A DNA stretch of 18,819 nt from Candidatus Hodarchaeota archaeon (GTDB lineage: Archaea; Asgardarchaeota; Heimdallarchaeia; Hodarchaeales; Hodarchaeaceae): contig JAEOTC010000231.1 in NCBI GenBank assembly GCA_016840035.1, positions 1 through 18,819 on the forward strand, written 5' to 3'. Positions 223 to 18,799 of this stretch are shown here, piece by piece (the first letter of the stretch is position 1; each line of letters opens with the position of its first letter). Both the position numbers and the translations under genes were made by a program. The notes under the pieces were generated by a model, which saw only the letters and a program-made list of their open reading frames with translations, had not been told where the DNA came from and did not search any database.

Positions 223-253
223 TTTCTTCAACCATCTCACCTTATTTTTCCGT

Positions 254-272
254 GAAATAATCCCTTATAAAA
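254..272 (+). promoter_or_regulatory. Putative archaeal promoter (purine-rich BRE-like segment + TATA box TTATAAAA at 265-272) for the ABC-2 operon
   Basis: TTATAAAA preceded by GAAATAA in the intergenic gap; GGTGA SD at 318-322 lies 7 nt before GTG 330. Confidence 0.5.
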
Positions 273-314
273 CTGATTTTATTCTATTTAGATAAATAAA
301 TGTGACCCCCTAAT

Positions 315-3452: not shown

Positions 3453-3471
3453 GATTCAAACCTAACTAGTA

Positions 3472-4836
3472 TTATTGGCCGAGAAATTCCTTGGCTAAAT
3501 TATAGTAAGCCATTAATGAATATTCTACTGTCTTTAAATTGACACGCTCATTGGGACCGTGAGGTAGTTTAGCCATTGTATTGAGAGGAGTATCAGGGTC
3601 AAACAAAGAAAACCCATATGCTTGAGTTCCTTGTTCTCGAAGGTATCTAAGATCAGTTGCCCCAGCTACAACGAGAGGTACAAATTGAACATTGGGATAT
3701 ACTTCAGAAACAGCTTTACACATAAATGGAACAATTTCTGATTCTGGATTACTTGCAGTTCCTTCTGATGTGAAAAATCCGGGCTGATCTGGAGGTTGTT
3801 CAATTATCGCTTCTTCCCCTAATTTTCCCATTGCTTTTCTGAGCTGTTTTTCAATATATTCATCATTTTGATTTGGTAGGGTGCGGATATCCACATCAAG
3901 ATACGCTTCACCTGCGACAATGTTTGTTTTAGTACCCCCATGGAAAATATTGGGGGAAATAGTCATTCTCGAGAGAGCATGTAGTAATCGAGCCATGACA
4001 GGATTCTGTCGGTGGGCCGTTCTTAGTACAATTGGAAGAAGTAAACGATGACTCAGCATAAAACGTGTTATTCTGTTTAATCCGAGTCCATTCACCATGA
4101 TTTTGATGTAGTCTAGGTTAATGGGGGGGGTATATTTGCTGAGTTTTTCTGCTGCAATCGCAGCTTTCACAACTGCATTATCACTCTTATATGGCATTGA
4201 TCCGTGAGTTGGTGTTCCCTTAAAGGAAACGCGTTTCCAAGCGGCTCCTTTTTCACCTGTTCCAAACAAGAGTTTACCTGGGGTGATTGGAATTCCACCA
4301 GCTTCGCTCAGAGCGTAGTCAACCTTCATGAAGTCAGGTTCATTTTTCATTAACCATTCGGTCCCGTAAATCCCTCCTGCTTCCTCGTCAGCGACTATAC
4401 ATAGTTTTAAATCCCCTTTTGGTTTAAACCCCTCTTCATGAAGACGTACAAATGCTTGAACTTGAGTGGCAACAATAAATAACATATCAAGAGTTCCCCG
4501 TCCCCAAATCTGTTCATCTTTAATAATTCCGCTAAATGGCTCTACTTCCCAAGCAGATTCGTTACCAATTGGAACTACATCAACATGAGAAGGTCCAAAC
4601 ATAAGTGATGGGCTTGATCCCTCACCTTTGATTTCAGCAATTAAGTTACCTCTTTCAGGTGCTGATTCAATGATTTTACAAGGGATGTTTCGTTGTTTCA
4701 AGTGATTTTCAATTGTGAGTATTGATTTGAGTTCTGTTCCAGGAGGATTGATACATTTATTCTGTACCATGGTTATTAATAATTCGTTTACTTCGTTAAT
4801 ATGCGTATTTTTAGATACCATCTTTAATCCAACCAT
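3472..4836 (-). CDS. M20/M25/M40 family metallo-amidohydrolase (ArgE/DapE fold; CPS1/PM20D1-like subgroup)
   Basis: Metal and catalytic motifs SHVDVVP, GRGTLDM, DEEAGG, SEAGG, HGPNER; dimerisation-domain motifs HGSMP and KTNIV. Start may be ATG 4821. Confidence 0.92.
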   Translation of the reverse strand: MVGLKMVSKNTHINEVNELLITMVQNKCINPPGTELKSILTIENHLKQRNIPCKIIESAPERGNLIAEIKGEGSSPSLMFGPSHVDVVPIGNESAWEVEPFSGIIKDEQIWGRGTLDMLFIVATQVQAFVRLHEEGFKPKGDLKLCIVADEEAGGIYGTEWLMKNEPDFMKVDYALSEAGGIPITPGKLLFGTGEKGAAWKRVSFKGTPTHGSMPYKSDNAVVKAAIAAEKLSKYTPPINLDYIKIMVNGLGLNRITRFMLSHRLLLPIVLRTAHRQNPVMARLLHALSRMTISPNIFHGGTKTNIVAGEAYLDVDIRTLPNQNDEYIEKQLRKAMGKLGEEAIIEQPPDQPGFFTSEGTASNPESEIVPFMCKAVSEVYPNVQFVPLVVAGATDLRYLREQGTQAYGFSLFDPDTPLNTMAKLPHGPNERVNLKTVEYSLMAYYNLAKEFLGQ

Positions 4837-4933: not shown

Positions 4934-5740
4934 TTAGCTCTGCTGGGATAGGAAATTCATCACAATCTCATTAAATTCATTTGGTTTTTCCCACGTAACC
5001 ACATGTCCACTATCTGGGATAACGTGAATTTCGGAATTAGGAATATTCTCATGAATTATTTTGGAGTATTTCTTCGGGGGTTTCAAGATATCTTTCTCCC
5101 CTCCTATAACACAGGTCGGAATCTTAATTTGATTTAATTGATCTGTAATATCAAGCTTAAGAAATGCGTCCATAAGTCTAACAAAGGAAGGATAATTAAA
5201 ATCTTTATAGCGACCTTTTGCTTGCTCCAACAAATCAGAATTATTTTTAATGTATGTTTCTGAAAAGTTGAATGGAACCGTGGAATAGTAAAACATTAAT
5301 GGGTTTGCTAGAACACACGCCTCTCTCCATAATTGTGCTACTTGCGCTAAGTAAGGACCAATATAAGAAACTCCACAACAGACAACGAGGGATTTTACCA
5401 GTTCTGGATATTTTAATGCAAAAACCATTCCCAACTCACTCCCATAGGAGATCCCGATATGATGAACGTGTTTGATGTCTAATACTTCTAGTAAGGCCTT
5501 TTGATCAGCCGCGTGAAGATCAAACGTATAATCCCCACTGGGTTTATCGCTCTGACCTTGGCCTCGCATATCATATAGTATAACTTTGTATTTTTTGGAA
5601 AATTCGGGAATCTGATTAAACCAACTGACGGTGTTAGCAAAGATCCCATTCGCGAAAATTAGAGGCTCTCCCTCTCCATGGATTTCGTAATAAATATTGA
5701 TTCCATTAACTTCAATTGTTGGCATTCCAAATCTTCTCAA
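4934..5740 (-). CDS. Alpha/beta hydrolase (PcaD/enol-lactonase-like serine hydrolase)
   Basis: YDMRGQGQS, nucleophile elbow GISYG, GEKD acid, SGH His. Likely start ATG 5725 (MPTIEVNG). Confidence 0.92.
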   Translation of the reverse strand: MRRFGMPTIEVNGINIYYEIHGEGEPLIFANGIFANTVSWFNQIPEFSKKYKVILYDMRGQGQSDKPSGDYTFDLHAADQKALLEVLDIKHVHHIGISYGSELGMVFALKYPELVKSLVVCCGVSYIGPYLAQVAQLWREACVLANPLMFYYSTVPFNFSETYIKNNSDLLEQAKGRYKDFNYPSFVRLMDAFLKLDITDQLNQIKIPTCVIGGEKDILKPPKKYSKIIHENIPNSEIHVIPDSGHVVTWEKPNEFNEIVMNFLSQQS

Positions 5741-7281
5741 TTACTATATTTTTCACGGAGTGCACGCTTAAGGATTTTGCCTGCACCAGATATAAACGGA
5801 GTAAAACTGTCGATAAAGACGACAGATTTTGGAACTTTAAATTTAGCAAGTTTCCCCTGACAGAATTCTACAATTTCTTCAGCAGTTGGGTCTTCACCTG
5901 ATTTTTTTACCGCGATAATTCTCCCGACTTCCCCCCATTTTGGATCAGGAATACCTATTACTTGCACTTGAGCTAGTTTTGGATGTTCTTCCAGGATTTT
6001 TTCTATTTCCCTTGGGTAAATGTTTTCTCCACCACTAATAAACATATCTTTCGTCCGATCAACGACGTAAAAGTAGCCTTCATCATCGTAGCGAACCATA
6101 TCTCCCGTTGCGAAATAACCTTCATTATCTAAGAGTTTTTCATTTAATTTCGGTCGATTCCAATACCCTGACGTTACAGTTGGTCCTTTAAACATCAATT
6201 CTCCCACCTCATTTGGTCCACAACGATTTTCAGTTTCAGGATCGACAACCTTAACATCAATAAAGAAATTTGGAGTACCAATACTGCCTATTTTCCGTTC
6301 AGCATCGACAGGGTCAAGAGCAAAACATCCAGGACCCACTTCAGTCATTCCAAACCCTTGTTTGAATTTCACCCCATGGGTCTCTTTGAAGGCCCGAATT
6401 ATGTCTAATGGGAGTGGTTCTCCTCCTGATGTTAGAAATCTCACACTGCTAAAATCTGTGGATGAGAAATTCGGGTTTGACATTAACATTCTGTGCTGCG
6501 TAGGAACTGCAAAAAAGAAGTTTGGTTTTTCTTGCTGAATTAAATTTAGAACTGTTTCTGTATCCCATGTTCGCATCTGTAATACTCTTCCTCCCAGGAT
6601 GAAAAGCGGAACTGGATATACATATGTTCCTCCAACATGAAATAAGGGTAAATGATTGATATAGGTGTCTCCAGGGAGAATATCACGTATAGTGTTAAGA
6701 GTATTGAACGCTACATGTTGATAGGTGATTAAAGCGCCCTTAGGCAGACCTGTTGTCCCTCCAGTAAATACTATTCCCATGGCATCATCGTAATGAAGTT
6801 TTGGAGAGGTCGGAGGTGAGCTTGAAGCGCTAGCAACTAGATGTTGATATGCCAAAGCATCTTTTGGACTTTCTTTAGAAGAATCCATCACTAACCAATG
6901 GGTTACAGAGGTTTCTCGTGATACTTCAAGAGAGATCTTACTGAATTCTTTTCCCACCATGACAACTCTGGGGGTAATATCGTTAATTAAACCAGAAAGT
7001 TCTTGAGACACTAATCGCCAGTTAAGGCCTGCGAGAATTCCACCTATTTTCTGGCATCCAAAGAATAATTCCCAGTATTCTAAAGTGTTTAAAGCAATAA
7101 CTGCTATTCGATCACCCTTTTTCACCCCTAAATCGTGAAGAGCATTTGCTACTCTATTTGCGCGAGTATTAAATTCTTCATAAGTGTATTTTCTACCTGT
7201 TTCCACTTCAATAATGGCTTCACTTTTTGGTGAATATACCACTCTTTTGGAAAGATAATCAAATTGGTTTACCATTTTCAT
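5737..7281 (-). CDS. Acyl-CoA synthetase / AMP-forming fatty-acid-CoA ligase (ligase 2)
   Basis: ANL motifs FTGGTTGLPKG, QGFGMTE, TGD, ISGGENIYPREIE, GKILKR. Confidence 0.95.
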   Translation of the reverse strand: MKMVNQFDYLSKRVVYSPKSEAIIEVETGRKYTYEEFNTRANRVANALHDLGVKKGDRIAVIALNTLEYWELFFGCQKIGGILAGLNWRLVSQELSGLINDITPRVVMVGKEFSKISLEVSRETSVTHWLVMDSSKESPKDALAYQHLVASASSSPPTSPKLHYDDAMGIVFTGGTTGLPKGALITYQHVAFNTLNTIRDILPGDTYINHLPLFHVGGTYVYPVPLFILGGRVLQMRTWDTETVLNLIQQEKPNFFFAVPTQHRMLMSNPNFSSTDFSSVRFLTSGGEPLPLDIIRAFKETHGVKFKQGFGMTEVGPGCFALDPVDAERKIGSIGTPNFFIDVKVVDPETENRCGPNEVGELMFKGPTVTSGYWNRPKLNEKLLDNEGYFATGDMVRYDDEGYFYVVDRTKDMFISGGENIYPREIEKILEEHPKLAQVQVIGIPDPKWGEVGRIIAVKKSGEDPTAEEIVEFCQGKLAKFKVPKSVVFIDSFTPFISGAGKILKRALREKYSN

Positions 7282-7307
7282 ACACCCGTTGACTTATATA
7301 TTTCCCG

Positions 7308-8321
7308 TTACCACCATCGTAATACTGCTGCCGAATAGTTTGCTCCTCCTCCTGAAGTACAAAGTGCAATTAGCTCCCCGTGGCCGCTCCCTGGCTTTGG
7401 GAGCTTCTTTTGAGTTATGGCATCATAAATACAGAGAGGTACACATGCTGAACCTGTGTACCCCCACTTATCCATGACAGTATGAGTCTTAGATATATCC
7501 GAACCCATTGCATGGAGAACAGCTTCAATCGTTTTTAAGTTAACCTGAGTAAAGAAAAACCAGTCTACATCATTGGGTGTAAACCCAGCTTTTGATAATG
7601 CGGTTTTTGTCACAATAGGCCAGTTTTTAAGGTTCGTTTCAGGTGGAAATCGTTTTCGAAATGCTACATGATGTCTGTGATTCTCTATAGCTTCAATTGT
7701 TGGAGGTTCGACTGTGCCTCCTACAAAAATCCCTAAATGATCATGAAAGCTCCCATCTGCCATTAATTTAGAAGATATATACCCTTTTTGTTTAGTATCA
7801 GCAGATAAAAGAAGAGCTCCTGCCCCATCAGCGAAAAGTGTGCAGGTATAATGATCAGTCCAATCAACATAGCGAGTCATACCATAGGCACCAATGACTA
7901 AAACGTTTTCTATGGTTTCATCGGTTTGGATATAGCGAGCTCCAATATCTAATGCAGATACAAATCCTGCACAAGCTGCATTTACATCAAAGGTCCCAGC
8001 GTTCTTTGCTCCAAGTTTATGTTGGACAACAACTGAAGTTGCTGGACTCAAATAATCAGGAGTATCTGTACTAACAATGATTAGATCAATATCTTTAGAA
8101 CTTACTTTCGCATTTTTTAATGCTTCTTGAGCGGCATATACGCATAGATCTGATGTAACTTCATCATCGGCCATGATATGTCGTTGTTTGATACCAACAT
8201 TCTTTACAAGCCAATCTGCAGTTCCAGGTCTTTGAAGCATTTCCTCCAATTCTTCATTTGTCAGAACTTTTTTTGGAACATACATCCCTACCCCTGTAAC
8301 GACAGCAGAGCGTTCCATCAA
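7308..8321 (-). CDS. 3-oxoacyl-synthase III (FabH/KAS III)-fold protein A with non-canonical active site (Cys-Thr-Tyr)
   Basis: GMYVP N-terminus, FDVNAACAGF (Cys117), LFADGAGA, GGG..AAVLRW C-terminus. HQAN is replaced by TQVN and GNTS by GYTG. Confidence 0.92.
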   Translation of the reverse strand: MMERSAVVTGVGMYVPKKVLTNEELEEMLQRPGTADWLVKNVGIKQRHIMADDEVTSDLCVYAAQEALKNAKVSSKDIDLIIVSTDTPDYLSPATSVVVQHKLGAKNAGTFDVNAACAGFVSALDIGARYIQTDETIENVLVIGAYGMTRYVDWTDHYTCTLFADGAGALLLSADTKQKGYISSKLMADGSFHDHLGIFVGGTVEPPTIEAIENHRHHVAFRKRFPPETNLKNWPIVTKTALSKAGFTPNDVDWFFFTQVNLKTIEAVLHAMGSDISKTHTVMDKWGYTGSACVPLCIYDAITQKKLPKPGSGHGELIALCTSGGGANYSAAVLRWW

Positions 8322-8324
8322 AAA

Positions 8325-9191
8325 TCAACCCTTAGGAAGGATAGTTCTTTTTGGTTCGGGGATGAAAGTTCCTGAGTCTACTTGCTCGTAAAAATCTAAT
8401 ATGGTTTGGTTAAACTGAGTATGTCTTTCAACTTCTATCCTATGGGGACCATCTTCGAAAAAAACCAGTTTCGAATTAGGTATCAACTCAAGGAGCATGT
8501 CGGCATTTTCAGGAGGGACAACCTTATCCTTCTGGCCATGGAGTATTAGGGTGGGAGACTTTATCTCATGTAAATGAGATTCTGAATCAAAATCTAAGCT
8601 TGCTTGAGCTTGTCTTCCCCGAGCATAATCTGGTTGAGGATTATCGAGAACCCACCTATCCATCTGATTGAGTAAAGGCTTATTTGCGTTTAGAAATTCC
8701 TCACTCCATGCAGTACTTCTTCGAATAGCCATAGCTTGTTCAAGAGAAATTGTTTCAGTTGGATAAGTAAACATTGCTGCAAGCATCTTATCTGAAGCTT
8801 GAATCGCTCGCTTGTTTGCAGCCCCGAATGCAGTGGATGAGATTGCTAAACCTGCCACCATTTCTGGATGAGAAATCGTTAATTGTTGTGCGATATATCC
8901 TCCCATACTAATCCCAAGAACATGAGTATGTTTTATCCCTAGTGCATCAAGCAATCCCTTTGCATCATCTGCAAACATTTGAATTGAATATTCCTCATCC
9001 GGTTTAGACGTCTTTCCTGCTCCACGATTATCGAATATTATCACTTTATACTTCTGACTGAATGATTCCAACTGTCTAAACCAAGTCCAGATTGCAACAC
9101 CCCAGCCTTCCAATAAAACTAATGGAAATCCATCTGAAGGTCCATGTATCTCATAGTAAATCTTAATATCATTAACGTTTATGTATGGCAT
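8325..9191 (-). CDS. Alpha/beta hydrolase (PcaD/MenH-like fold serine hydrolase)
   Basis: FDNRGAGKTS, nucleophile elbow GISMGG, HGQKD acid, GPH His; GGAG SD upstream. Confidence 0.92.
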   Translation of the reverse strand: MPYINVNDIKIYYEIHGPSDGFPLVLLEGWGVAIWTWFRQLESFSQKYKVIIFDNRGAGKTSKPDEEYSIQMFADDAKGLLDALGIKHTHVLGISMGGYIAQQLTISHPEMVAGLAISSTAFGAANKRAIQASDKMLAAMFTYPTETISLEQAMAIRRSTAWSEEFLNANKPLLNQMDRWVLDNPQPDYARGRQAQASLDFDSESHLHEIKSPTLILHGQKDKVVPPENADMLLELIPNSKLVFFEDGPHRIEVERHTQFNQTILDFYEQVDSGTFIPEPKRTILPKG

Positions 9192-9217
9192 TTTATCTCC
9201 TCATATCATACTTATCA

Positions 9218-10603
9218 TTATGAAACCATTGCAAACATTATAAAAAATACTAGAAATGTACCAATAAGAGCAAAAATCCAATAATCATGCTCATAGATGA
9301 ATAGCTGCCGTCCAGTCTCTTTCAATGACCGTGAACGTCTTTGAAGTGAACCTACAATACCATAGGGAAAGAAGAGGACAATGATTATATATAGAACACC
9401 TAGCACGACAAGCCACCATTCACCAAACCCTGGAAAGATATTCTCGATTAGATCTACAAGTCTTAATTCTGAGAATACCACAACTCCCGTACCTAGGAAT
9501 GGACCAATCAAAGTCCCTAAACCTCCTACAATGGTATAAATCATTGCATCAATAGCAATTTCCACACCTAAACCGGTATGGGGATCTAATGTACGAATAT
9601 AAGGAGAAAATAAAGCTCCAGAAAGAGCAGCTATTCCCCCAGCAATAGCAACAGTAATAATCTTATATCGGTATGTATTGTAACCTAAGGCCTGTACTCT
9701 TTCTTCATTTTGAGCTATTGCTGTTATCACCCTTCCAAAGGGAGAGATAGATAATCGTTGAATAAACAGGTACACAACCACCATTGAAGTAAGGGCAAGA
9801 TAGTATTGGACAGGAATTGTGAATAAGTATCTTTTAGAAGTAAAAAAGAGTGAAAAGACATTTGAAGCCACAACAAGCCCAACAATAATGAGTCCCAATA
9901 TCATTAATCCAATCTTTCTCGAAGTTAATTCAAATTTTTCCGCTTTTTCTGTAATTTCATTAACTTTTTGATAATCAAATGGGTTCACGGGTAAACGAGT
10001 AGATATATACTGCACAACCATGAAAATGAAAGCAATTATTACTAGTAAAGCAAAGATAGCAAAAATTAAGTAAGTAAACTGATTTTTGATTAAAGGAGGT
10101 ATTTCCACTCTCAGACCTGTTTCCCCACCTGAAATATCTGAATTTGTTTTGAAGAATTCAAAAACAAGCATTGCAATTGCAAGAGCAATAAAAGCAAATC
10201 CTGTTCCACGTAACCTATCAGTTGTAGCACCCATTACAGCACCAACAAAAATTCCAACTAGGATAGTCAAGAATAAAGCGAAAGGATATGGTAGACCAGA
10301 TATTAAGCTTATCGGAAACGGCATAGCCTTATTAGTAAAAATAAATGCAAACATATAAGCTCCAACCCCGAAGAGTAATGCTTGTCCAAAATTTAAAAGG
10401 CCAGAACGACCTAGCTGTAGATCAAAAGACATTGCTAAGATTCCAAATGTAAAAATCAGCGTTAATGTGTGTAGGAGAGTTCTAAGTGATGAAGTTTCAG
10501 CTGCTGTTAATAACGGTAGAAAATATAGAAAAGCTACTACCGTAATAAAAACCCTATTTTTCGACAAATATTTGTCTATTTTTGATAACGTAAGATAAGA
10601 CAT
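9218..10603 (-). CDS. livM: HAAT (Liv-type) ABC transporter permease LivM, extended
   Basis: GRSGLLNFGQALLFGVGAY, GGETG, SPFGRVITAIAQNEERVQALGY, IVGGLGTLIGPFLG. Confidence 0.92.
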   Translation of the reverse strand: MSYLTLSKIDKYLSKNRVFITVVAFLYFLPLLTAAETSSLRTLLHTLTLIFTFGILAMSFDLQLGRSGLLNFGQALLFGVGAYMFAFIFTNKAMPFPISLISGLPYPFALFLTILVGIFVGAVMGATTDRLRGTGFAFIALAIAMLVFEFFKTNSDISGGETGLRVEIPPLIKNQFTYLIFAIFALLVIIAFIFMVVQYISTRLPVNPFDYQKVNEITEKAEKFELTSRKIGLMILGLIIVGLVVASNVFSLFFTSKRYLFTIPVQYYLALTSMVVVYLFIQRLSISPFGRVITAIAQNEERVQALGYNTYRYKIITVAIAGGIAALSGALFSPYIRTLDPHTGLGVEIAIDAMIYTIVGGLGTLIGPFLGTGVVVFSELRLVDLIENIFPGFGEWWLVVLGVLYIIIVLFFPYGIVGSLQRRSRSLKETGRQLFIYEHDYWIFALIGTFLVFFIMFAMVS

Positions 10604-10618
10604 GATAAATCTCTCCTA

Positions 10619-11710
10619 CTAGTGTTCTCCTGTTAATCCTCCTGGTTTGAATACCAGTATTACTGACATGATGATGAATACTATGATGCTCGATATATCT
10701 GGGAAGAAATACTCGCAGAATTTTATTGACATGCCCACAATGAGTGCTCCGAAGAACGTTCCTTCAAAACGTCCGTAGTGAGCCCCGCCTACGACTACGA
10801 TTACAAACGCAAAAATTAGATAAGTGGTCCCATGTCCTGTATTCGCACCTAACCAAGGTACCAGAATTACGCCTGCCAGTCCAGCTAAAGCTGCTCCAAC
10901 CATAAAAACAAGTGTGAATAACCGTGTAATGTTTATTCCAAGCGCTTCTACCATTTCCGCATCCTCAATTCCAGCTTGGATTTGTAGACCAACCCGAGTT
11001 TTTTGGAATACAAGGAACATCCCACCAGCGAAGAGAAAACCAAAGATTATCAAAAAAATTTGGTAAACCTCAAAGACTAGTCCCGTTCCAAGATTAATTA
11101 CTCCACCTAAAAAGAAATAATTAAGTTGTGACGACGAATCGAGAAAGAATGTCTGGAATGGGGCCCCCCAGATTATTTCCGCCAGTTTAGCAATAATAAA
11201 CATGAAACCGATGGTTAGTAGAATTTGACTTGTCACATTTCCATAGTATTTTTTGATGGTGAATACTTCTATCCCCCCTCCAATTACTGCTAATATAGAA
11301 GCTGTCCCAATACAGGCAATGAAAAATGCAAGAAGTGACACAAAAAAGTTGTTATTGAGAAAAGCAGTATCAAGGAGATAAATTTCTGACGCAAGATAGA
11401 TCTCATATCCAATAAAGCCTCCTAGCATAAAAAAAGCTCCATGCGCAAAGTTAATGACGTCACATAAACCGAAAATAACGAAAAATCCACTAACCATAAG
11501 GAAAAGAAGCATGCTATATGCTAACCCATCGATAATTGATCGGCCGAATTTTAAGGTGAAAGCGTCTACTGATATTTCAATTTGAGAATAAGCCCAATAG
11601 ATTGATAGGATCAAAATGATCACTAATGTTAAAATCTTAACAATTCGACTTGTAAGAATAAATTTCTTAATTTTTTGGTATATACTGGTTTCTATACTCA
11701 TAATTTTCAC
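10619..11710 (-). CDS. livH: HAAT (Liv-type) ABC transporter permease LivH
   Basis: FGLCDVINFAHGAFFMLGG, TRVGLQIQAG...MVEALGIN, FVIVVVGG, KPGGL. Likely start ATG 11701 after AGGTGA. Confidence 0.92.
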   Translation of the reverse strand: MKIMSIETSIYQKIKKFILTSRIVKILTLVIILILSIYWAYSQIEISVDAFTLKFGRSIIDGLAYSMLLFLMVSGFFVIFGLCDVINFAHGAFFMLGGFIGYEIYLASEIYLLDTAFLNNNFFVSLLAFFIACIGTASILAVIGGGIEVFTIKKYYGNVTSQILLTIGFMFIIAKLAEIIWGAPFQTFFLDSSSQLNYFFLGGVINLGTGLVFEVYQIFLIIFGFLFAGGMFLVFQKTRVGLQIQAGIEDAEMVEALGINITRLFTLVFMVGAALAGLAGVILVPWLGANTGHGTTYLIFAFVIVVVGGAHYGRFEGTFFGALIVGMSIKFCEYFFPDISSIIVFIIMSVILVFKPGGLTGEH

Positions 11711-11711
11711 C

Positions 11712-12437
11712 TTACGTTGTAGTTACTCCAAGATGTCGTGATACAAGTTCTTTATCTGCAGTAAGTTTAGCCATATCTTCACCACTTGCTACAATTTTCC
11801 CATCATCAAAGATATAGTATCGGTCCCCTAATGCTGTCACGGATCGGAAATTTTGTTCTACTAACAGAATTGTTTTTGTTTCTTTAAGTTGACTAAGAGA
11901 TCTCAATAGATTTTTGGAATAGAGAGGCGATAATCCTTCAGTTGGTTCATCGATAAGAAGAAGATCATTTTCATTAACAAGAGCTCGTGCGACGGCAAGC
12001 ATCTGTTGTTGACCTCCAGAAAGACTTCTTGCCTTATTTTTCCAAAATTGTTTGAGATCAGGAAATAGATTGAAAATATATTCAAATTTATCTTCCTGAT
12101 TCTTTGTTCCAGATCTTCGCATAGCAACAAGTAAGTTCTGTTCGACAGTAAGGGTGTTAAATATGCGTCGTGTGTCGGGAACATAGCCTATTCCTTGTTG
12201 AACTATTTTATGTGCTGGGAGATGTGAGATTTCATCCCCTTTAAAGCGAATGCTTCCTTGTCTTGGTGGAAGTAATCCAAGAATGGCTTTCATAGCTGTA
12301 GTTTTTCCTGAACCATTACGACCAAGGAGTACAGTCACTTCACCTTTTGGGACTTCAAAAGAAACTCCGTGTAAAATATAAAAAGACTGGATATATACAT
12401 GGATATCATTAACTTCAAGCAGACTCATATTCATCAC
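11712..12437 (-). CDS. livF: HAAT ABC transporter ATP-binding subunit LivF
   Basis: GRNGSGKTT, LSGGQQQMLAVARAL, LIDEPTEGL, LVEQN. Likely start ATG 12428. Confidence 0.95.
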   Translation of the reverse strand: MMNMSLLEVNDIHVYIQSFYILHGVSFEVPKGEVTVLLGRNGSGKTTAMKAILGLLPPRQGSIRFKGDEISHLPAHKIVQQGIGYVPDTRRIFNTLTVEQNLLVAMRRSGTKNQEDKFEYIFNLFPDLKQFWKNKARSLSGGQQQMLAVARALVNENDLLLIDEPTEGLSPLYSKNLLRSLSQLKETKTILLVEQNFRSVTALGDRYYIFDDGKIVASGEDMAKLTADKELVSRHLGVTTT

Positions 12438-13238
12438 CTAAATTAAATCCTCATCTGTACTTCCCAAGTACGCCTGCAATACGTCTTTATTCTCCTTTAT
12501 CTCTTGTGGTTGTCCTTGTGCAATTTTCTTTCCATTAGATAAGACTATTATCTCTTCTGATATTCTCATCACAACATCCATTTTATGTTCAACAAGAATT
12601 ACTGTTAGATCCTTCCCGAAACGCTCTTTTACTCGAAGGATTGCATCAATTACTTCTGGAATTTCCTCTACAGACATACCCGCGGTCGGTTCGTCAAGTA
12701 GAAGTAGCGAAGGTTTAGTTCCAAGAGCCATGGCAATTTCTAATTTTCTCTGTTCTGCATGTGGTAGCAATGTTGCAGGGACAAATAATCGGACTGGATC
12801 TAAACCAACGATATCTGCAATCCCATAGGTTTCATTATGCAATACTTCAATGTCTCCTGCTCGTCTGATAATATCCGAAAGCTTAATCTTCCCTTTTAGA
12901 TAGTGACCTTGAATAGAAAGTCGAATATTCTCGAAAGCGGTTAGATAAGGAAAGATATTCGTTATTTGATAAGATCTAGAAATTCCATGTTGAGAACGTT
13001 GATGGGGAGGAGAATTTGTAATGTCTTTACCATTAAATAGGATTGATCCTTCTGTAGGAGGAAGAACTCCAGTGATTAAATTAAAAAAGGTGGTTTTACC
13101 AGATCCATTTGGGCCAATAATAGTCTTAACAGACCCTCTTTCAATTTCTACATCGACCATGTTAACTGCGGTTAATCCACCGAATTTCTTGGTAATTTTG
13201 TTGGTCTGTAGAATGATATCATTTGTAGCTGAATTCAT
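12438..13238 (-). CDS. livG: HAAT ABC transporter ATP-binding subunit LivG
   Basis: KKFGGLTAV, GPNGSGKTT, SRSYQITNIF, LLDEPTAGM, VEHKM, VLQAYLG. Confidence 0.95.
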   Translation of the reverse strand: MNSATNDIILQTNKITKKFGGLTAVNMVDVEIERGSVKTIIGPNGSGKTTFFNLITGVLPPTEGSILFNGKDITNSPPHQRSQHGISRSYQITNIFPYLTAFENIRLSIQGHYLKGKIKLSDIIRRAGDIEVLHNETYGIADIVGLDPVRLFVPATLLPHAEQRKLEIAMALGTKPSLLLLDEPTAGMSVEEIPEVIDAILRVKERFGKDLTVILVEHKMDVVMRISEEIIVLSNGKKIAQGQPQEIKENKDVLQAYLGSTDEDLI

Positions 13239-13261
13239 TTTTATTCCTTCATTATTGTGAC

Positions 13262-13675
13262 TTAACTTAACATAACCTCTGCTTCACCCGTGATAACCTC
13301 TATTTCATCTTGGTTTTTACAGATTGTTTTTAGCCTTATTCTCTTTTTATCATCCTGCTTACTTATTACTTCAACATATGTATTAATAGTATCACCAATT
13401 CTCACTGGCCGCTTAAACTTAACTTGCTGAGAAAGGTAAATAGTGCCTGGTCCAGGTAGCTCTTTTGCAAGAACTGTGGAGATAAACGATGCAGAAAGCA
13501 TCCCATGGGCTATTCTTCCTTTAAAAATTGTTCCTTTTGCAAATTCTTCATCTAAATGGACAGGATTATGATCTCCTGATACTTCTGCAAAATTCACAAT
13601 ATCTTGTTCCGTAATTGTTCGAACATATTCTGCTGATTGACCGATTTTGATATTTTCATACGTATTTTTCGTCAT
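13262..13675 (-). CDS. phaJ: MaoC-family (R)-specific enoyl-CoA hydratase, PhaJ-like
   Basis: Hydratase-2 motif FAEVSGDHNPVHLDEEFA...RIAHGML and LPGPGTIYLSQ; single 137-aa hot-dog domain. Confidence 0.9.
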   Translation of the reverse strand: MTKNTYENIKIGQSAEYVRTITEQDIVNFAEVSGDHNPVHLDEEFAKGTIFKGRIAHGMLSASFISTVLAKELPGPGTIYLSQQVKFKRPVRIGDTINTYVEVISKQDDKKRIRLKTICKNQDEIEVITGEAEVMLS

Positions 13676-13722
13676 TTCTATCCAGACTTTAATTTATAAT
13701 TCATATCACTCTATTTACAGCA

Positions 13723-14748
13723 TTATACTGTTCCCCAACGAATTACTCCAGCATTCCAGGCCCATCCAATTCCTGCTGCTGCAAACACGACATAATCTCC
13801 ATCCTTAATCATACCTTGTCTCACTCCCCTATCAATTGATAAAATCATATCATTTTGACCATTATGACCAATATCATCTAGGTAAATAGATTGTTTGTAT
13901 GGATCAACCCCGATAGCTTTCGCTACATATTCGAATGCTGAACGCTTCATATGGAGTAATGCGAAGAAATCTATATCCTCTCTTGTAATCCTTGACATGG
14001 CTAATGCTTCGTCAATAACTCGGACAAAAGACTCCATTGAAAAACTATCAAGCCGTTCTTTTAATCCACTCGGATCGGATACGTCTAAATAAGTTAATTC
14101 TTTCTCGATAGCTTCTGATGAAATTGGATGAACGGTACCTCCTGCAGGAACATATACATCATCTGCAAATCGTCCATCTGAAACTGCAGATATTCCTAGT
14201 ATTTCATTCGTTTTGCTATCGCCTTTGACTATAATAGCAACACCACTAGCTGCTAAACTAATCATAAATCTAGTACGTGGATTTTTATAATTAATTAGAT
14301 CCGAATTTCTGTACCCAGAGGCAATTAATACTCGCTTCATCTCTGGGTAAACCTGTAATAGACTCTTAGCTAATAGTATACCAACAGGTAAACTGCCACA
14401 CCTTTGATTAATATCAAAAGCCCATGGTTTTTTTGGACACCCAAGGTATTTCTGAAGTTTAATTCCGTACGTTTGCATTGGATATTCAGAGTACACTTCG
14501 CCAGCCCAAATGATGAGGTCTATATCTTCGGCAGTAAGATTAGCTTGTTTTAGAGCTTTTTTTGCTGCTTCTGCTCCCATATACACAGTGTGATCTTTTG
14601 GACCAGGGACTGTTTTTGCTTTTAATCCAAATTTTGATTCCAGAATATCTTTTGGAATTCCAGTTTCTGACGAAATTAAATCACTAGTGTGCCGTTCTTC
14701 AGGAAGGTACACTCCCCATGATTCGATTCCTACAGGACGTTCAGTCAG
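13723..14748 (-). CDS. KAS III (FabH)-fold protein B (Cys + GHxGxxD type; resembles the PRK06840-type family as I recall it)
   Basis: FDINQRCGS (catalytic Cys), GYRNSDLINY.NPRTRFM, LLHMKRSA, GHNGQND, AGIGWAWNAGVIRW. Frame extends 12 codons beyond the ORF-track GTG (14712) to CTG 14748, restoring the first beta-strand VGIESWGVYLP. Confidence 0.9.
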   Translation of the reverse strand: MTERPVGIESWGVYLPEERHTSDLISSETGIPKDILESKFGLKAKTVPGPKDHTVYMGAEAAKKALKQANLTAEDIDLIIWAGEVYSEYPMQTYGIKLQKYLGCPKKPWAFDINQRCGSLPVGILLAKSLLQVYPEMKRVLIASGYRNSDLINYKNPRTRFMISLAASGVAIIVKGDSKTNEILGISAVSDGRFADDVYVPAGGTVHPISSEAIEKELTYLDVSDPSGLKERLDSFSMESFVRVIDEALAMSRITREDIDFFALLHMKRSAFEYVAKAIGVDPYKQSIYLDDIGHNGQNDMILSIDRGVRQGMIKDGDYVVFAAAGIGWAWNAGVIRWGTV

Positions 14749-14764
14749 TTTGATTCACCTTCAT

Positions 14765-16303
14765 TCATTTTAACTCCCGTTTCAATATTTTTCCTGCAGC
14801 TGAAAGAGGTAATTCCTCTTTTATCACAATGTATCTGGGAATTTTATATTTTGCGAGTCTCTCGGTTAAATATTTTCTTATTTCTGTCTCTTTTATTGAT
14901 TTTCCAGGTTTTAGAGTTACATAAGCTTTCCCTACTTCACCCCATTTCTCATCAGGTACTCCTATGACTGCTGCTAGTGCAACAGCTTCATTCTTGTATA
15001 ATGCTTCTTCGATTTCTACTGGATAAATATTCTCACCCCCTGAAATATACATCTCTTTAGAACGTCCTACAATATAGAAAAATCCATTTTCATCCTGTTT
15101 AACCAAATCACCTGTATGCATATAGCCATCTGACCTGATTGCTTTCTTTGTCTCCTCAGGTTCTTCCCAGTATCCTGAAAATATATGAGGTCCTTTAATC
15201 AGTAATTCTCCAACTTCTCCTTGGGGACATTCAGTACCAGTCTTTGGATTGACTATTTTTAGATCATTATGAAACACAGGGTAACCTACTGATAGAGGAT
15301 GCTGTTTTATTTTATCCTCTGGAAGGTAGAAGTTGTTTGGTCCAGCTTCTGTTAGTCCGTATCCCATTTTCATAAGTTTACCCTTTTCCCAGTAGCGTTT
15401 CATGACCTCTTCAGGACAGGCCGCACCACCTGAAATAAATATCTTGACGGCCTCAAAATTTGCAGTTTGAAAGTTTGGTGACATCGACATCATGTGGAAC
15501 ATAGTTGGTACTCCCACTACAATAGTGCATTTTTCTTTCTCTATTAAACGGAGAGTTTCATCTGGATCAAAATCACCCATTAAAATTGTTTTTCCCCCTT
15601 GATGATAACAAGGAAGAAATAGGACGTTCCATCCACCAGTATGAAACAGAGGAAACAGTAATGGTTCCACCTCATCTGGATGTAAATTCCATGTAAGTAT
15701 CGTATTTATCGAATTCCAGAAAATCATGCGATGCGATAGGACTGCTCCTTTTGGAAGTCCTGTTGTTCCCCCAGTAAATAGTATAAGATGGGGATCTTCA
15801 AAATGTACAATAGGTCGCTCTATATTAGTTTTTTCTTCTTCTTGTGTAAATTCCAGATAGGATTGATCCCCATCTACCGTTTCACTTCCCATTGCAATAT
15901 ACAATGGGATTTTTACAGTTTCTCTTGATTTCATTACTTTTTCTTTAATTGTTGGATCATAAAACATGATAGTGGGAGAAGTTTTTTCAATTAGATAAGT
16001 AAGCTCTGCGGGAGCTAATCTTATATTGTATGGTACGAGAATTGCACCTAATTTACCAGTAGCAAAGAATAAATCTAGACTCTCAATACGATTCTTGGAA
16101 TATAAGGCAACTCTATCTCCTTTAGATATTCCCCTTTTCTTCAAAGCGTGTGCTAACTGATTAGCACGATAATTCATTTCTTCAAACGTATATCGTTTCT
16201 TCTCAATATTATCGACTATTGCTTCTAACTTCGGTGTAAGTTGAGCTCGTCGTGCGGAATAATCACCAATCCATGACCAATCATCATTCATCGTAATATT
16301 CAA
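14765..16303 (-). CDS. Acyl-CoA synthetase / AMP-forming fatty-acid-CoA ligase (ligase 1)
   Basis: FTGGTTGLPKG, GYGLTE, TGD, ISGGENIYPVEIE, GKILKR. Likely start ATG 16291. Confidence 0.95.
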   Translation of the reverse strand: MNITMNDDWSWIGDYSARRAQLTPKLEAIVDNIEKKRYTFEEMNYRANQLAHALKKRGISKGDRVALYSKNRIESLDLFFATGKLGAILVPYNIRLAPAELTYLIEKTSPTIMFYDPTIKEKVMKSRETVKIPLYIAMGSETVDGDQSYLEFTQEEEKTNIERPIVHFEDPHLILFTGGTTGLPKGAVLSHRMIFWNSINTILTWNLHPDEVEPLLFPLFHTGGWNVLFLPCYHQGGKTILMGDFDPDETLRLIEKEKCTIVVGVPTMFHMMSMSPNFQTANFEAVKIFISGGAACPEEVMKRYWEKGKLMKMGYGLTEAGPNNFYLPEDKIKQHPLSVGYPVFHNDLKIVNPKTGTECPQGEVGELLIKGPHIFSGYWEEPEETKKAIRSDGYMHTGDLVKQDENGFFYIVGRSKEMYISGGENIYPVEIEEALYKNEAVALAAVIGVPDEKWGEVGKAYVTLKPGKSIKETEIRKYLTERLAKYKIPRYIVIKEELPLSAAGKILKRELK

Positions 16304-16377
16304 CCGTAAATAACCTATAGTTCGTCAAAGAAGTTTTTACGAATTTCTATTGTTTGTATCGGGAGATTCATCTTTAA

Positions 16378-16423
16378 GGAGGGAGAAAAAAGGGAGAAAA
16401 TTTAGTAAATTAATACTAAATTT
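16378..16423 (-). terminator. Hairpin + U-tract internal terminator/processing site after the binding-protein gene
   Basis: 10-bp inverted repeat AAATTTAGTA (16398-16407) / TACTAAATTT (16414-16423), followed on the minus strand by TTTTCTCCCTTTTTTCTCCCTCC. Confidence 0.6.
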
Positions 16424-17855
16424 ATCTTCGTCGTTTCAAGATTACGGGTACCGCGGCAAGGAATCCTACTGCAATTACAACAGTAGTAATGTCAAATCCA
16501 GGCGCTGCACCTCCACCAAAGCTTCCAGGTTCATAATCTGTTAACACTGGAGGAGCAACCGATTCTGCTGATAGAGTTTGGACATGTTTAGCAATTAAGA
16601 AACCAAAAGTCTCTGAGGTTGGTCGATCATCTTGCCAAATTTCTGCAATGTACATCTCTGACAATCCTTGGTGATCTTCAGGCCTAAGTCGTGTTGGACC
16701 TTTTGGAGTAGTAATTGTCAGATTACTCTCAAGGTGATTTATCATATCTCCTACATCAAGATCTTTGACTTCACTAGTAACATCGACAATAAATTGAGCG
16801 GTACCAAAGCCAGATGCGGTGAATAATTCAGGAACTTTGTAATTGAGTCCAAAAGCACCATTAGGTTTGATATTTCTGGTTTTATGTTCGGCTACCATCC
16901 AATCATTGACATCGTTGTCTGGAAGTTCATAACCATATACACAAAGACCTGTACCTCCAACAAGAGTGCTATTTCCTCCAAAGCTAGCCTCAATAGCATT
17001 CATAGAGAATATATCGATAACAGCACCAGAAACATTCATTGAGTTGTAGATTGCAAATGTTTCCATGTCTTTGTATAGATTCGTAAAGTCTCCAGCCCAG
17101 ATTATAAACAAGGCATCAATACCAAATATCGCATCAGCGGTAATTAAATTAGTTAATGCTGCGGAAAAGTCAGTAGCAAATAAACTGGCATATTGAATGC
17201 TAGTAACACTTCCACCTTTTTCCTCAATAACTGCCTTCATGGTTTCTACTCCAGAATATCCGAAAGAATAGTCTGCAGCAAGAAAAGCACATTTTTTAGC
17301 ACCAATAGTGTCCATCATATAGCTTACACCAGTTTTCGCATCGTGCCAATTATTTCGTGCAATTCTGAAGATATAAGGATTGAAGTTATCAGCAGTTAAT
17401 GATGCATCTGCAGCTGGCCCCATGAAGAATAAAGTCTCATATTCCTCTGCGATTGGTGCAATTGCACCAGCAACACTGCTATATGTTGCACCAGCAAGAA
17501 TATCCATCTGATCAGTTTCAATGGCTTGAACAGCTAAAGTAGCTGCATCTGTAACGGAACCTTTCGTATCATAGTATGTAATCTCATATGGTCGACCCGC
17601 AGGTGTCGCATTTGTTCCATCAGTTGCATAATCAAGCCCCAATTCGAATCCTTGAATTGACCAAGGTGCGTAGAACGACAAGGAGGCGGTCGTCATTGGC
17701 GCAAAATACCCAATCTTAATTGGGTCATCAGCCGCAGCCTTTTCTGTCACAGCTGTTAATGGAACAACTGTCATAAGTGGAGCTACAGCCAATATGGCCA
17801 AGATAAATAACATAGAATAATTCTTTTTCATATTCATTTCATTCCTCCAAATCAT
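16422..17855 (-). CDS. HAAT/LivJ-K-fold (type 1 periplasmic binding) solute-binding protein with signal peptide and C-terminal PGF-CTERM-like anchor
   Basis: MKKNYSMLFILAILAVAPL signal peptide; IKIG...GFELGLDYAT, YIFRIARN, LAADYSFG, RPEDHQ motifs; tail APGFDITTVVIAVGFLAAVPVILKRRR. Likely start ATG 17837, 6 nt after GGAGG. Confidence 0.92.
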   Translation of the reverse strand: MIWRNEMNMKKNYSMLFILAILAVAPLMTVVPLTAVTEKAAADDPIKIGYFAPMTTASLSFYAPWSIQGFELGLDYATDGTNATPAGRPYEITYYDTKGSVTDAATLAVQAIETDQMDILAGATYSSVAGAIAPIAEEYETLFFMGPAADASLTADNFNPYIFRIARNNWHDAKTGVSYMMDTIGAKKCAFLAADYSFGYSGVETMKAVIEEKGGSVTSIQYASLFATDFSAALTNLITADAIFGIDALFIIWAGDFTNLYKDMETFAIYNSMNVSGAVIDIFSMNAIEASFGGNSTLVGGTGLCVYGYELPDNDVNDWMVAEHKTRNIKPNGAFGLNYKVPELFTASGFGTAQFIVDVTSEVKDLDVGDMINHLESNLTITTPKGPTRLRPEDHQGLSEMYIAEIWQDDRPTSETFGFLIAKHVQTLSAESVAPPVLTDYEPGSFGGGAAPGFDITTVVIAVGFLAAVPVILKRRR

Positions 17856-18091: not shown

Positions 18092-18190
18092 GACAGTAAA
18101 AGAACCTAAAAATCTAATAAAAAAAACCAATTTTTCGGGTTTAAAATTCTGACAATATATTCAGGTATGTATACGAGGTGACATGATAGA

Positions 18191-18799
18191 TTGCCAATCA
18201 TGTTAGATGAAATTTTCAAACCTAAATCCCTTACTAAAAAGGGAGTTCCTTCAATCAAAATAGTTGCGGGAATAATAGGAAATTGTTGGATTAAACCCAT
18301 GAAAAACCGTGAAATTGCAAATAAACTATCAGTGAGTGACGCTGTCATATCAGATGCAGTTAATAACCATTTAAAAAGGGCAGAAGTTCTTGTAATAGAA
18401 CCTTCTTCATCCGAAAAACGATTTAAGAATAATTTAAATTTTCTTGGTATTGTGGAATATTTTAGTGAGATTTCTGATTGGAAAGGAGATCAAAATGAAA
18501 TTGTGTCTGCTATTTTATTTAATCGTAAATCAGTGGGAAAATCATTTATTGATTCATTTGTTCTTGGAAAAGCGTATGAATATGGTTTAAATAAGGTTTC
18601 CCATCTCTATAAAACGATTCCTGAGCTATTATTTCTACTTATCATGAGTCTTGATGCAACTGCCCCTAAAAATCAAGTTTATCTCCATTTCTTACGAAGT
18701 GTTTATCGTTCAATCATGCTTAAGGCTCAAGAGGATCATCCTGAGCTTGTTTATGTGTGGTCAGGACTAACGTGGTTCATGATGGACTTTGATAGTTAG
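18191..18799 (+). CDS. Putative winged helix-turn-helix DNA-binding protein with uncharacterised C-terminal domain
   Basis: PMKNREIANKLSVSDAVISDAVNNHLKRAEVLVIE fits an ArsR/TrmB-like wHTH; GAGGTGA SD at 18175-18181 before TTG 18191; divergent from the operon. Confidence 0.65.
   Translation: MPIMLDEIFKPKSLTKKGVPSIKIVAGIIGNCWIKPMKNREIANKLSVSDAVISDAVNNHLKRAEVLVIEPSSSEKRFKNNLNFLGIVEYFSEISDWKGDQNEIVSAILFNRKSVGKSFIDSFVLGKAYEYGLNKVSHLYKTIPELLFLLIMSLDATAPKNQVYLHFLRSVYRSIMLKAQEDHPELVYVWSGLTWFMMDFDS

Follow-up and report, generated by a model that had tools for sequence, protein, structure and literature searches.

The first 18,819 nucleotides (nt) of contig JAEOTC010000231.1 from a Candidatus Hodarchaeota archaeon (assembly GCA_016840035.1), hereafter called the window, carry a cluster of 12 co-oriented and tightly packed open reading frames (ORFs) on the minus strand at positions 4934 to 17855. 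The ORF list and Pfam matches identified among the products two proteins with the fold of beta-ketoacyl-acyl carrier protein (ACP) synthase III (KAS III), referred to as KAS III-A and KAS III-B, together with the parts of an ABC importer, two acyl-coenzyme A (acyl-CoA) ligases (LIG1 and LIG2), a MaoC-type hydratase, and two hydrolases (HYD1 and HYD2). Both KAS III proteins lack the His/Asn pair with which FabH decarboxylates malonyl thioesters, and each belongs to a family in which this pair is consistently replaced. A preliminary description of this DNA had listed the same 12 genes, and their arrangement was confirmed here. In order of transcription, the cluster reads as follows.

16422..17855, minus strand: solute-binding protein of a HAAT-type ABC importer (Peripla_BP_6, 155.6 bits; signal peptide)
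14765..16303, minus strand: LIG1, acyl-CoA ligase of the ANL family, paired with KAS III-B (AMP-binding and AMP-binding_C)
13723..14748, minus strand: KAS III-B, KAS III fold, NF005308 (PRK06840) family (384-396 bits, cutoff 315)
13262..13675, minus strand: MaoC/PhaJ-type (R)-specific enoyl-CoA hydratase (MaoC_dehydratas, 107 bits; NF006045 hydratase domain, 158.6 bits)
12438..13238, minus strand: ABC ATPase, LivG-like (ABC_tran and BCA_ABC_TP_C)
11712..12437, minus strand: ABC ATPase, LivF-like (ABC_tran, 123.5 bits)
10619..11710, minus strand: ABC permease, LivH-like (BPD_transp_2, 96.7 bits)
9218..10603, minus strand: ABC permease, LivM/UrtC-like (BPD_transp_2, 129 bits; UrtC 117 and LivM 57 bits, both below cutoff)
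8325..9191, minus strand: HYD1, cytoplasmic serine alpha/beta hydrolase (Abhydrolase_1, 109 bits; GISMG nucleophile motif)
7308..8321, minus strand: KAS III-A, KAS III fold, "Cys-Thr-Tyr" clade (alignments to FabH structures, clade signature, and AlphaFold2 model)
5737..7281, minus strand: LIG2, acyl-CoA ligase of the ANL family, near-universal downstream partner of KAS III-A (AMP-binding domains)
4934..5740, minus strand: HYD2, cytoplasmic serine alpha/beta hydrolase (Abhydrolase_1, 114.8 bits; GISYG nucleophile motif)

From LIG1 to HYD2, the intergenic spacing ranges from a 4-nt overlap to 47 nt, which is compatible with a single transcript, and the binding-protein gene lies 118 nt upstream of LIG1. 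Residues of KAS III-A are numbered here from TTG 8321; its start is probably ATG 8318, and that of HYD2 is probably ATG 5725. As had been noted before, the Pfam search of the window revealed no ACP, FabD/malonyl transacylase, ketoreductase, enoyl reductase, acyl-CoA dehydrogenase, or classical thiolase.

The host was confirmed to be an Asgard archaeon, and the close homologues of both KAS III proteins carry the names Thor-, Hermod-, Hod-, Odin-, and Promethearchaeota. We then examined the host assembly, which is 4.3 Mb in size and 86.97% complete and in which the window is contig 217. It yielded no match to PP-binding (PF00550, ACP), ACPS (PF01648, phosphopantetheinyl transferase [PPTase]), Acyl_transf_1 (PF00698, FabD), or PhaC_N, so that the earlier label of an ACP-less system holds for this assembly; at this level of completeness, the negatives do not prove that the genes are lacking. 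The best match to the KAS I/II family (PF00109) reached only 20.5 bits, and one carboxyltransferase is encoded. The genome also codes for a 560-residue protein resembling 3-hydroxy-3-methylglutaryl-CoA (HMG-CoA) synthase (HMGCS) on contig 252 (locus L100, positions 199 to 1881, minus strand). This protein scores 185 bits against the archaeal HMGCS model (cutoff 353) and has a long C-terminal extension with a Cys-x-x-Cys motif.

When KAS III-A was aligned to solved FabH proteins, the nucleophilic Cys117 was found to be kept, and the positions of the FabH His and Asn were occupied by Thr258 and Tyr288, respectively. The protein belongs to a clade with a ten-residue signature, consisting of Asp86, Ser92, Cys117, Tyr146, Asn230, Trp234, Thr258, Tyr288, Cys293, and Ser323. 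Each of these residues is kept in 87 to 95 of 95 clade sequences (94 to 95 for Cys117, Thr258, and Tyr288), and FabH-like outgroups differ at all of them but the Cys. Among the best 124 full-length representatives at 50% identity, 17 carry Cys-Thr-Tyr and 101 carry Cys-His-Asn.

Asp86, present in 94 of the 95 sequences, aligns with the catalytic Glu in the S-E-S motif of the genome's own HMGCS-like protein, a position occupied in canonical FabHs by Ile, Leu, Val, Thr, or Ser. In HMG-CoA synthase, the catalytic Glu abstracts a proton from the acyl-Cys intermediate and subsequently activates a water molecule. This correspondence is the best sequence-level hint of nondecarboxylative enolate chemistry in KAS III-A, and Asp86 would fit such C-C chemistry at least as well as the formation of esters or amides. 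Two further signature residues, Ser92 and Ser323, presumably replace Phe87' and Phe304, which line the primer pocket of E. coli FabH. The FabH columns for CoA-adenine contact (Trp32 and Arg151) and for ACP docking (Arg249) are variable in the KAS III-A clade, where the commonest residues are F (0.35), K (0.18), and S (0.24), whereas the same columns are 0.86 to 0.99 conserved in the Cys-His-Asn relatives; the KAS III-A of the window keeps the Trp.

The AlphaFold2 model of KAS III-A (pLDDT 94.7) superposed on FabH with template modeling scores of 0.86 to 0.91. The protein scores 267 bits against the NF006829 subfamily (cutoff 249) and 40 bits against TIGR00748 for HMGCS (cutoff 353), and its Thiolase_N matches, at 24.6 to 26.3 bits, stay below the cutoff of 26.4. 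Cys321, which precedes the GGG loop, was considered as a thiolase-like second Cys and was rejected, for it varies within the clade; the invariant Cys293, in turn, lies off the thiolase Cys position. A look-up in the ESM Atlas returned generic KAS III clusters only. Foldseek placed FabH structures on top for both KAS III models and did not separate FabH from CerJ, OleA, and PqsC neighbors. In the literature, we found no paper on either KAS III clade or on the cluster in Asgard archaea.

KAS III-B was assigned to NF005308 with 384 bits, rising to 395.7 bits with an extended N terminus (cutoff 315). For the equivalog name of this model, "3-oxoacyl-ACP synthase," no experimental basis was found. 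Cys117 is again kept; Leu occupies the FabH His position, His295 stands at the FabH Asn position, and Asp300 follows five residues on. Cys117, Lys268, His295, Asp300, and an acidic residue at position 84 (Glu84) are invariant across the Asgard and Chloroflexota members examined, and Glu84 aligns with the catalytic Glu of the HMGCS-like protein of the genome. His266, one residue past the FabH His position, was rejected as a catalytic residue, being Arg in Thorarchaeota and Leu in Caldilineales. The AlphaFold2 model (pLDDT 78) shows a KAS III fold. In the Streptomyces acyltransferases ChlB3 (C113/H296/D301) and CerJ (C116/H295), acyl transfer relies on a Cys activated by a His-Asp pair (PMC9573744). 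Given this CerJ-like triad, the formation of esters or amides, which had been proposed for the locus, is plausible for KAS III-B.

The start of KAS III-B required correction. The ORF from GTG 14712 lacks the conserved first strand, and there is no ATG, GTG, or TTG ahead of that strand. Homologues begin with M-x-x-R-P-V-G, and their Met aligns with CTG 14748, which lies six bases after AGGTGA. Judged from this alignment, the start is most likely CTG 14748 rather than GTG 14712; a one-base assembly error is the alternative. An out-of-frame ATG at 14768 overlaps the LIG1 stop codon as ATGA (region 14745 to 14768).

Both KAS III proteins thus lack the decarboxylation pair of FabH, as had been asserted, and they do so throughout their families. 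On this conservation, the altered active sites of both proteins are a redesign and not a decay. The databases nevertheless label the products of the cluster ketoacyl-ACP synthase III (fabH) and branched-chain amino acid transporter (liv), just as had been predicted for automated annotation.

The partner genes were then compared with family models and solved structures. LIG1 and LIG2 are paralogues with 38% identity. LIG1 scores 469 bits against NF005307 and 450 bits against NF004837, and its best match in the PDB is the feruloyl-/fatty-acyl-CoA synthetase 8wev (341 bits). LIG2 scores 449.6 bits against NF004837 (long-chain-fatty-acid-CoA ligase), just below the cutoff of 476, and matches 8weu/8wev with 328 bits and FadD13 with 294 bits. 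The NCBIfam models that fit LIG1 and KAS III-B best, PRK06839 and PRK06840, are close in number to PRK06841 (a short-chain dehydrogenase/reductase [SDR] subfamily) and PRK06837 (an M20 deacylase); we suspect that these four models derive from adjacent genes in a single Bacillus genome.

HYD1 and HYD2 each carry a GxSxG serine and, late in the sequence, a His, and both lack a signal peptide. Among solved structures, HYD1 is closest to the esterase Est1 (6eb3/8v16, 155 bits) and the acyl-homoserine lactone lactonase/esterase Est816 (5egn), and it scores 139 bits against PcaD, the 3-oxoadipate enol-lactonase (cutoff 256). HYD2 is closest to the metagenomic esterase MGS-M2 (4q3l, 143 bits), and its orthologues in Anaerolineales loci score 240 to 260 bits. 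For the solute-binding protein, the best solved relatives are 3n0x and 3nnd of Rhodopseudomonas palustris (E value, 1e-38), for which no ligand was found in the literature. It scores 27 bits against the LIV (branched-chain amino acid) model (cutoff 477) and 40 to 53 bits against the urea models (cutoff about 494). Its C terminus, encoded at 16422 to 16520, consists of a Gly-rich linker, PGF, a hydrophobic helix, and KRRR; it resembles an archaeal anchor of the PGF-CTERM type, here attached to a HAAT protein of bacterial type.

A pattern scan of species-representative genomes located the KAS III-A clade in at least 596 species genomes of archaea and bacteria, including Asgard archaea, Thermofilum, Chloroflexota, Acidobacteriota, Myxococcota, and Caldisericia. 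Cultured carriers include Thermofilum, Corallococcus, Archangium, Pyxidicoccus, and Chondromyces. Synteny was analyzed for the best 80 of these matches, many of which are close kin, and the counts describe this sample rather than the whole family. An ANL ligase lies directly downstream of KAS III-A in 59 of the 68 loci with enough flanking sequence. Within 6 kb of KAS III-A in 40 bacterial loci, we counted a ligase in 35, a hydrolase in 22, an SDR in 20, ABC importer parts in 9, MaoC in 8, KAS III-B in 7, and thiolase and DUF35 proteins in 4 each.

The same gene set as in the window is present on one strand in another Hodarchaeota genome. One Hermodarchaeota locus and three Thorarchaeota loci have it in divergent arms, MaoC-KAS III-B-LIG1 on one side and LivGFHM-HYD1-KAS III-A-LIG2-HYD2-binding protein on the other. 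The set also recurs in six Anaerolineae loci; the arrangement seen in Anaerolineae, KAS III-B-LIG1-HYD-KAS III-A-LIG2-binding protein-LivGFHM, has essentially the content of the window. Conserved co-occurrence in other genomes, on which the preliminary description had staked its proposal, was therefore found, and the recurrence of the set in Thor-, Hermod-, and Hodarchaeota and in Anaerolineae is not due to chance. The cluster is not specific to archaea.

In three relatives, the place of the ligase is taken by a CoA-transferase of the butyryl-CoA:acetate type. These are locus L101 of an uncultured bacterium, locus L016 of Caldisericia, and locus L108 on a plasmid of Chloroflexota. This exchange indicates that the conserved step is the formation of a CoA thioester, not the making of a beta-lactone or the loading of an acyl adenylate onto an enzyme. 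The kind of transporter varies among the loci, and it belongs to an importer class throughout. HAAT ABC importers occur at KAS III loci of Asgard archaea, Thermofilum, Chloroflexota, Bacillus, and Halobaculum, and importer linkage was also seen in Caldisericia. Pyrinomonadaceae have a major facilitator superfamily (MFS) transporter with a TonB-type barrel, and Chondrinema has a sodium:solute symporter (SSS) with a TonB receptor. An enzyme that opens esters or lactones is always near, with unrelated folds: alpha/beta hydrolases in the window, double NHL/SGL propellers resembling gluconolactonase/arylesterase in Bacillus and Brevibacillus, and, in Halobaculum, a propeller of the PQQ-like kind. 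L016 and L101 encode SDRs of the FabG/PhaB type that exceed the TIGR01830 cutoff. Other companions at the relatives' loci are thiolase with DUF35, plain thiolase, Bcd/Etf, and MaoC, and TetR or MalT regulators stand beside these loci. No enoyl reductase was found in any locus examined, nor any reductase in the window or in the other Asgard loci.

Several of these loci showed arrangements of their own. A KAS III-B module of Firmicutes was seen in Bacillus sp. N5-665 (L109, NZ_CP093325.1, 5454 to 15730) and Brevibacillus laterosporus (L106, 5317 to 11745). Its order is TetR-ligase-MaoC-KAS III-B-NHL/SGL double propeller (621 to 633 residues)-binding protein-LivGFHM, with an SDR after the propeller in Brevibacillus. 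Both organisms are in culture and are amenable to functional work. A plasmid of Halobaculum roseum (L105, NZ_CP082288.1, 3379 to 12798) carries binding protein-LivGFHM-KAS III-B-like-PQQ propeller-acyl-CoA dehydrogenase; at this haloarchaeal megaplasmid locus, the KAS III and permease genes share an 8-nt overlap, and a neighboring ligase gene is lacking. In a Thorarchaeota genome (L011, CP070761.1, 16286 to 19459), a protein with a weak Condensation/PapA_C match and an AHSA1/SRPBCC protein lie beside the KAS III-A module; in these Thorarchaeota, they may supply additional functions in acyl transfer or lipid binding.

In the maximum-likelihood tree of KAS III-A, obtained with a quick search, rooted on Cys-His-Asn relatives, and having long basal branches, the Asgard sequences form one clade (SH-aLRT, 100), sister to a clade of Chloroflexota and Myxococcota (95). 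Outside these lie Acidobacteriota, Caldisericia, Thermofilum, and unassigned lineages. KAS III-A is present in 3 of the 22 species of the host genus. The tree and this patchiness agree with a single ancient transfer from bacteria and uneven retention thereafter, although they do not prove its direction. Nested in a bacteria-dominated family and patchy within its genus, the cluster says little about the ancestral state of archaeal fatty-acyl metabolism, on which it had been thought to bear.

Taken together, these features led us to regard the cluster, with a confidence only a little above even, as an accessory catabolic or salvage operon, probably from bacteria, that would import an ester, lactone, or hydroxy acid bearing a carboxylate and handle it in the form of CoA thioesters, with no carrier protein involved. 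An exchangeable activator, found with importers, ester-opening enzymes, companions acting on (R)-3-hydroxy- and 3-oxoacyl-CoA, and TetR or MalT regulators, points to a substrate-inducible catabolic locus. The synthesis of a product with hydrolases that trim it, as previously envisaged, appears less likely, since the CoA-transferases, the MFS and SSS transporters with TonB-type receptors, the FabG-type SDRs, the thiolase/DUF35 proteins, and the TetR/MalT regulators of the relatives all point to catabolism. A narrower guess, which we put forward as doubtful, is the use of (R)-3-hydroxyalkanoate esters, such as oligomers derived from polyhydroxyalkanoate or related lactones; with a substrate of this kind, an ester or lactone of an (R)-3-hydroxy acid, there would be work for the esterases and ligases as well as for MaoC and the enzymes of the FabG type.

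The proposed route would begin with import of the compound by the anchored binding protein and LivGFHM, after which HYD1 and HYD2 would open its ester bond or bonds in the cytoplasm and LIG1 and LIG2 would turn the released acids into acyl-CoAs. Each ligase would feed the adjacent KAS III protein, which would be acylated on Cys117. KAS III-B may then pass its acyl group on to an acceptor atom (O, N, or S), or it may catalyze the reverse reaction (thiolysis). KAS III-A may make or break a C-C bond by a nondecarboxylative Claisen, a retro-Claisen (thiolase-like), or an HMG-CoA-synthase-like reaction, in which Asp86 would serve as the base and Thr258 and Tyr288 would form the oxyanion hole. MaoC would interconvert (R)-3-hydroxyacyl-CoA and enoyl-CoA, leading into general beta-oxidation or crotonyl-CoA metabolism.

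It is possible, though on balance we would not expect it, that the Asp-Cys-Thr-Tyr(-Cys) clade catalyzes a type of reaction new to the KAS III fold and marks a CoA-dependent pathway, so far undescribed and shared by both domains, for the catabolism of esters or hydroxy acids from the environment. Two candidate reactions would fit: a thiolase- or HMGCS-like nondecarboxylative cleavage or formation of C-C bonds on free CoA thioesters, and a CoA-dependent thiolysis of oxygen esters, which would spare the ATP for reactivation. If so, KAS III-B would be the first acyltransferase with a CerJ-like Cys-His-Asp triad to act in primary or catabolic metabolism.

Several observations weigh against the catabolic operon as drawn here. 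The binding protein, the ligases, and the hydrolases match broad families only and fall below the specific cutoffs. The window has no SDR, thiolase, or acyl-CoA dehydrogenase, and to complete the route we must therefore turn to genes outside it or draw on the loci of relatives by analogy. The CoA-adenine contacts are not conserved in the KAS III-A clade, so that even the acyl donor is something we infer. From the geometry of the FabH helix, the invariant Cys293 may be buried below the active site rather than catalytic. Finally, no tested function was found in the literature for any member of either KAS III clade.

Other explanations must be weighed against an operon for uptake and breakdown. 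The cluster could instead perform a biosynthetic condensation of the OleABCD/lipstatin/PqsBC kind, in which a KAS III-A/KAS III-B heterodimer joins two acyl-CoAs head-to-head, one from each ligase, and the hydrolases release or decarboxylate the product, yielding a ketone, beta-keto acid, lactone, or ester lipid. The KAS III, ANL, and alpha/beta hydrolase families of OleABCD are indeed present here, and 20 of the 40 bacterial loci add an SDR. The pairing of KAS III paralogues whose triads are incomplete recalls PqsBC, the two being adjacent in L101 and coclustered in Asgard archaea and Anaerolineae; Asp86 could be the base for a nondecarboxylative Claisen reaction, and a PapA/condensation-like acyltransferase lies nearby in one Thorarchaeota genome. 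We nevertheless consider this explanation unlikely. The ligases match CoA-ligase subfamilies (NF004837, as given above), with FadD13 and feruloyl-CoA synthetase as their nearest structures, and a CoA-transferase takes the ligase's place in three lineages, which a beta-lactone synthetase role would forbid; an OleC-like role for the ligase was rejected on this ground. KAS III-A occurs without KAS III-B in 33 of the 40 bacterial loci, and an obligate PqsBC-like heterodimer was likewise rejected. OleA keeps the Cys-His-Asn triad and adds Glu117, but in KAS III-A the His and Asn are gone and Ser92 stands at the place of Glu117 (placed by residue spacing). Importer classes as neighbors (binding-protein ABC systems, or MFS and SSS transporters beside TonB-type barrels), the TetR or MalT regulators, and the lack of a reductase in the window and in the other Asgard loci also argue against condensation.

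Very unlikely, in our view, is an ACP-independent synthesis or elongation of fatty acids on CoA esters, with KAS III for condensation, an SDR of the FabG type for reduction, MaoC for dehydration, and imported short acids as primers. Lombard et al. reportedly proposed such an ACP-independent route for archaea in 2012. It would account for the presence of KAS III, MaoC, and CoA ligases in a genome where no ACP was found and for the FabG-type reductases that adjoin KAS III-A in several bacteria, and the one carboxyltransferase of the genome could make malonyl-CoA. Yet neither KAS III protein has the His/Asn pair needed for malonyl decarboxylation, no locus examined encodes an enoyl reductase, the Asgard loci lack a reductase, and the two esterases would be left without a role. 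The occurrence in 3 of 22 species and the nesting in bacterial diversity would also be unexpected for core lipid synthesis. As for a chance neighborhood of an amino acid (LIV) importer and ordinary fabH genes, the database names suggest it and KAS III-A exceeds the NF006829 cutoff, but this explanation is close to refuted. Neither KAS III protein has the catalytic His or Asn; the genome yielded no match to ACP, PPTase, or FabD; importers accompany the KAS III genes in Asgard archaea, Thermofilum, Halobaculum, Bacillus, Chloroflexota, and Caldisericia; and the binding protein falls far short of the LIV model (27 bits, cutoff 477).

An accessory catabolic operon, if this is what the cluster is, has consequences beyond the window. 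Two large families annotated as fatty-acid starter enzymes across hundreds of genomes almost certainly do something else. The KAS III pair is the conserved heart of an uptake-and-activation locus, and solving its function would add a reaction to the repertoire of the thiolase superfamily, while the pathway would extend models of carbon turnover in sediments, soils, sludge, and hot springs. For Asgard archaea, there is a caution: these "fabH" genes should not be read as a sign that the archaeal relatives of eukaryotes make fatty acids in the bacterial manner. They probably belong to a patchy, acquired catabolic module. The interest lies mainly with enzymologists and with annotators of Asgard lipid metabolism, for whom a false "fabH" signal is removed. 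Cultured carriers, such as Thermofilum adornatum (locus tag N186_09645), Chondrinema litorale (OQ292_RS29210), Halobaculum roseum (K6T36_RS17185), Corallococcus coralloides, and Bacillus sp. N5-665, make the proposal directly testable. New in this work are the cross-domain extent of the clade (at least 596 species genomes), the swap of ligase and CoA-transferase, and the variable importers and ester-opening enzymes; further additions are the Asp86/HMGCS correspondence, the CerJ-like residue positions in KAS III-B, and the list of cultured carriers.

Further genes flank the cluster in the window. Downstream on the same strand, at 2520 to 4836, lie genes for an M20 (ArgE/DapE-family) deacylase and an EamA transporter, with gaps of 97 and 19 nt; they are not kept beside the cluster in the other loci examined. 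Near the low-numbered end, an ABC-2 type exporter pair (ATPase and permease) is encoded on the plus strand (315 to 2476), and beyond the binding-protein gene are two ORFs of 202 and 80 codons without a Pfam match (18106 to 18799).

Finally, the cluster was compared with known systems. Both KAS III proteins share with FabH (E. coli, 1hn9; B. subtilis FabHA, 8vd9) the KAS III fold, the Pfam domains ACP_syn_III and ACP_syn_III_C, and a nucleophilic Cys at the same helix N terminus, and KAS III-A also keeps the GGG oxyanion loop. They differ from it in the C112/H244/N274 triad (E. coli numbering), in which KAS III-A has Thr for His244 and Tyr for Asn274 and KAS III-B has Leu and His, respectively, and in a host genome, 86.97% complete, where ACP, PPTase, and malonyl transacylase were not found. 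The Streptomyces KS III-like acyltransferases CerJ, ChlB3, and DpsC come closest to KAS III-B in active-site residues, since its Cys117/His295/Asp300 reproduces C113/H296/D301 of ChlB3 and C116/H295 of CerJ (PMC9573744). KAS III-B is not in their clade, however; its profile scores FabH with 129 bits, DpsC with 59, CerJ with 52, and ChlB3 with 49. It also resides in uptake/catabolic operons with a CoA ligase and MaoC, whereas those enzymes belong to polyketide synthase clusters with ACPs.

HMG-CoA synthase, with its Glu-Cys-His set, resembles the pair in having an acidic residue at the Glu position (Asp86 in KAS III-A and Glu84 in KAS III-B) along with the Cys, and in acting on CoA esters without ACP and without decarboxylation, as is predicted for the KAS III pair. 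In KAS III-A, however, its His is replaced by Thr258, and no HMGCS counterpart of Tyr288 and Cys293 is known to us. The thiolases (EC 2.3.1.9/16) differ in that their Cys-His-Cys set is not reproduced and the Thiolase domains stay below the cutoff.

OleABCD and the lipstatin/nocardiolactone systems LstAB/NltAB perform nondecarboxylative condensation, with paired KAS III paralogues. The families clustered in OleABCD (KAS III-like, ANL, alpha/beta hydrolase, and SDR) are clustered at the loci studied here as well. In contrast to that system, the ligases are CoA-ligase-like and can be swapped for CoA-transferases, the SDRs are of the FabG and not the OleD type, and importers and catabolic regulators are part of the locus. 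The importer agrees with the HAAT (LivJFGHM-type) systems in having a Peripla_BP_6 protein, two BPD_transp_2 permeases, and two ATPases, one of them with the BCA C-terminal motif. Some HAAT importers, for example, in R. palustris, work together with CoA ligases that act on aromatic, fatty, or dicarboxylic acids. The cluster has the same importer parts next to acyl-CoA ligases, and the nearest solved binding proteins are those of R. palustris; unlike these systems, it has a putative archaeal C-terminal anchor on the binding protein, and we know of no HAAT-CoA ligase system with KAS III-fold enzymes. Taken together, each known system compared here differs from the cluster in at least one defining feature, the exception being the component set of the HAAT importer, all parts of which are present.

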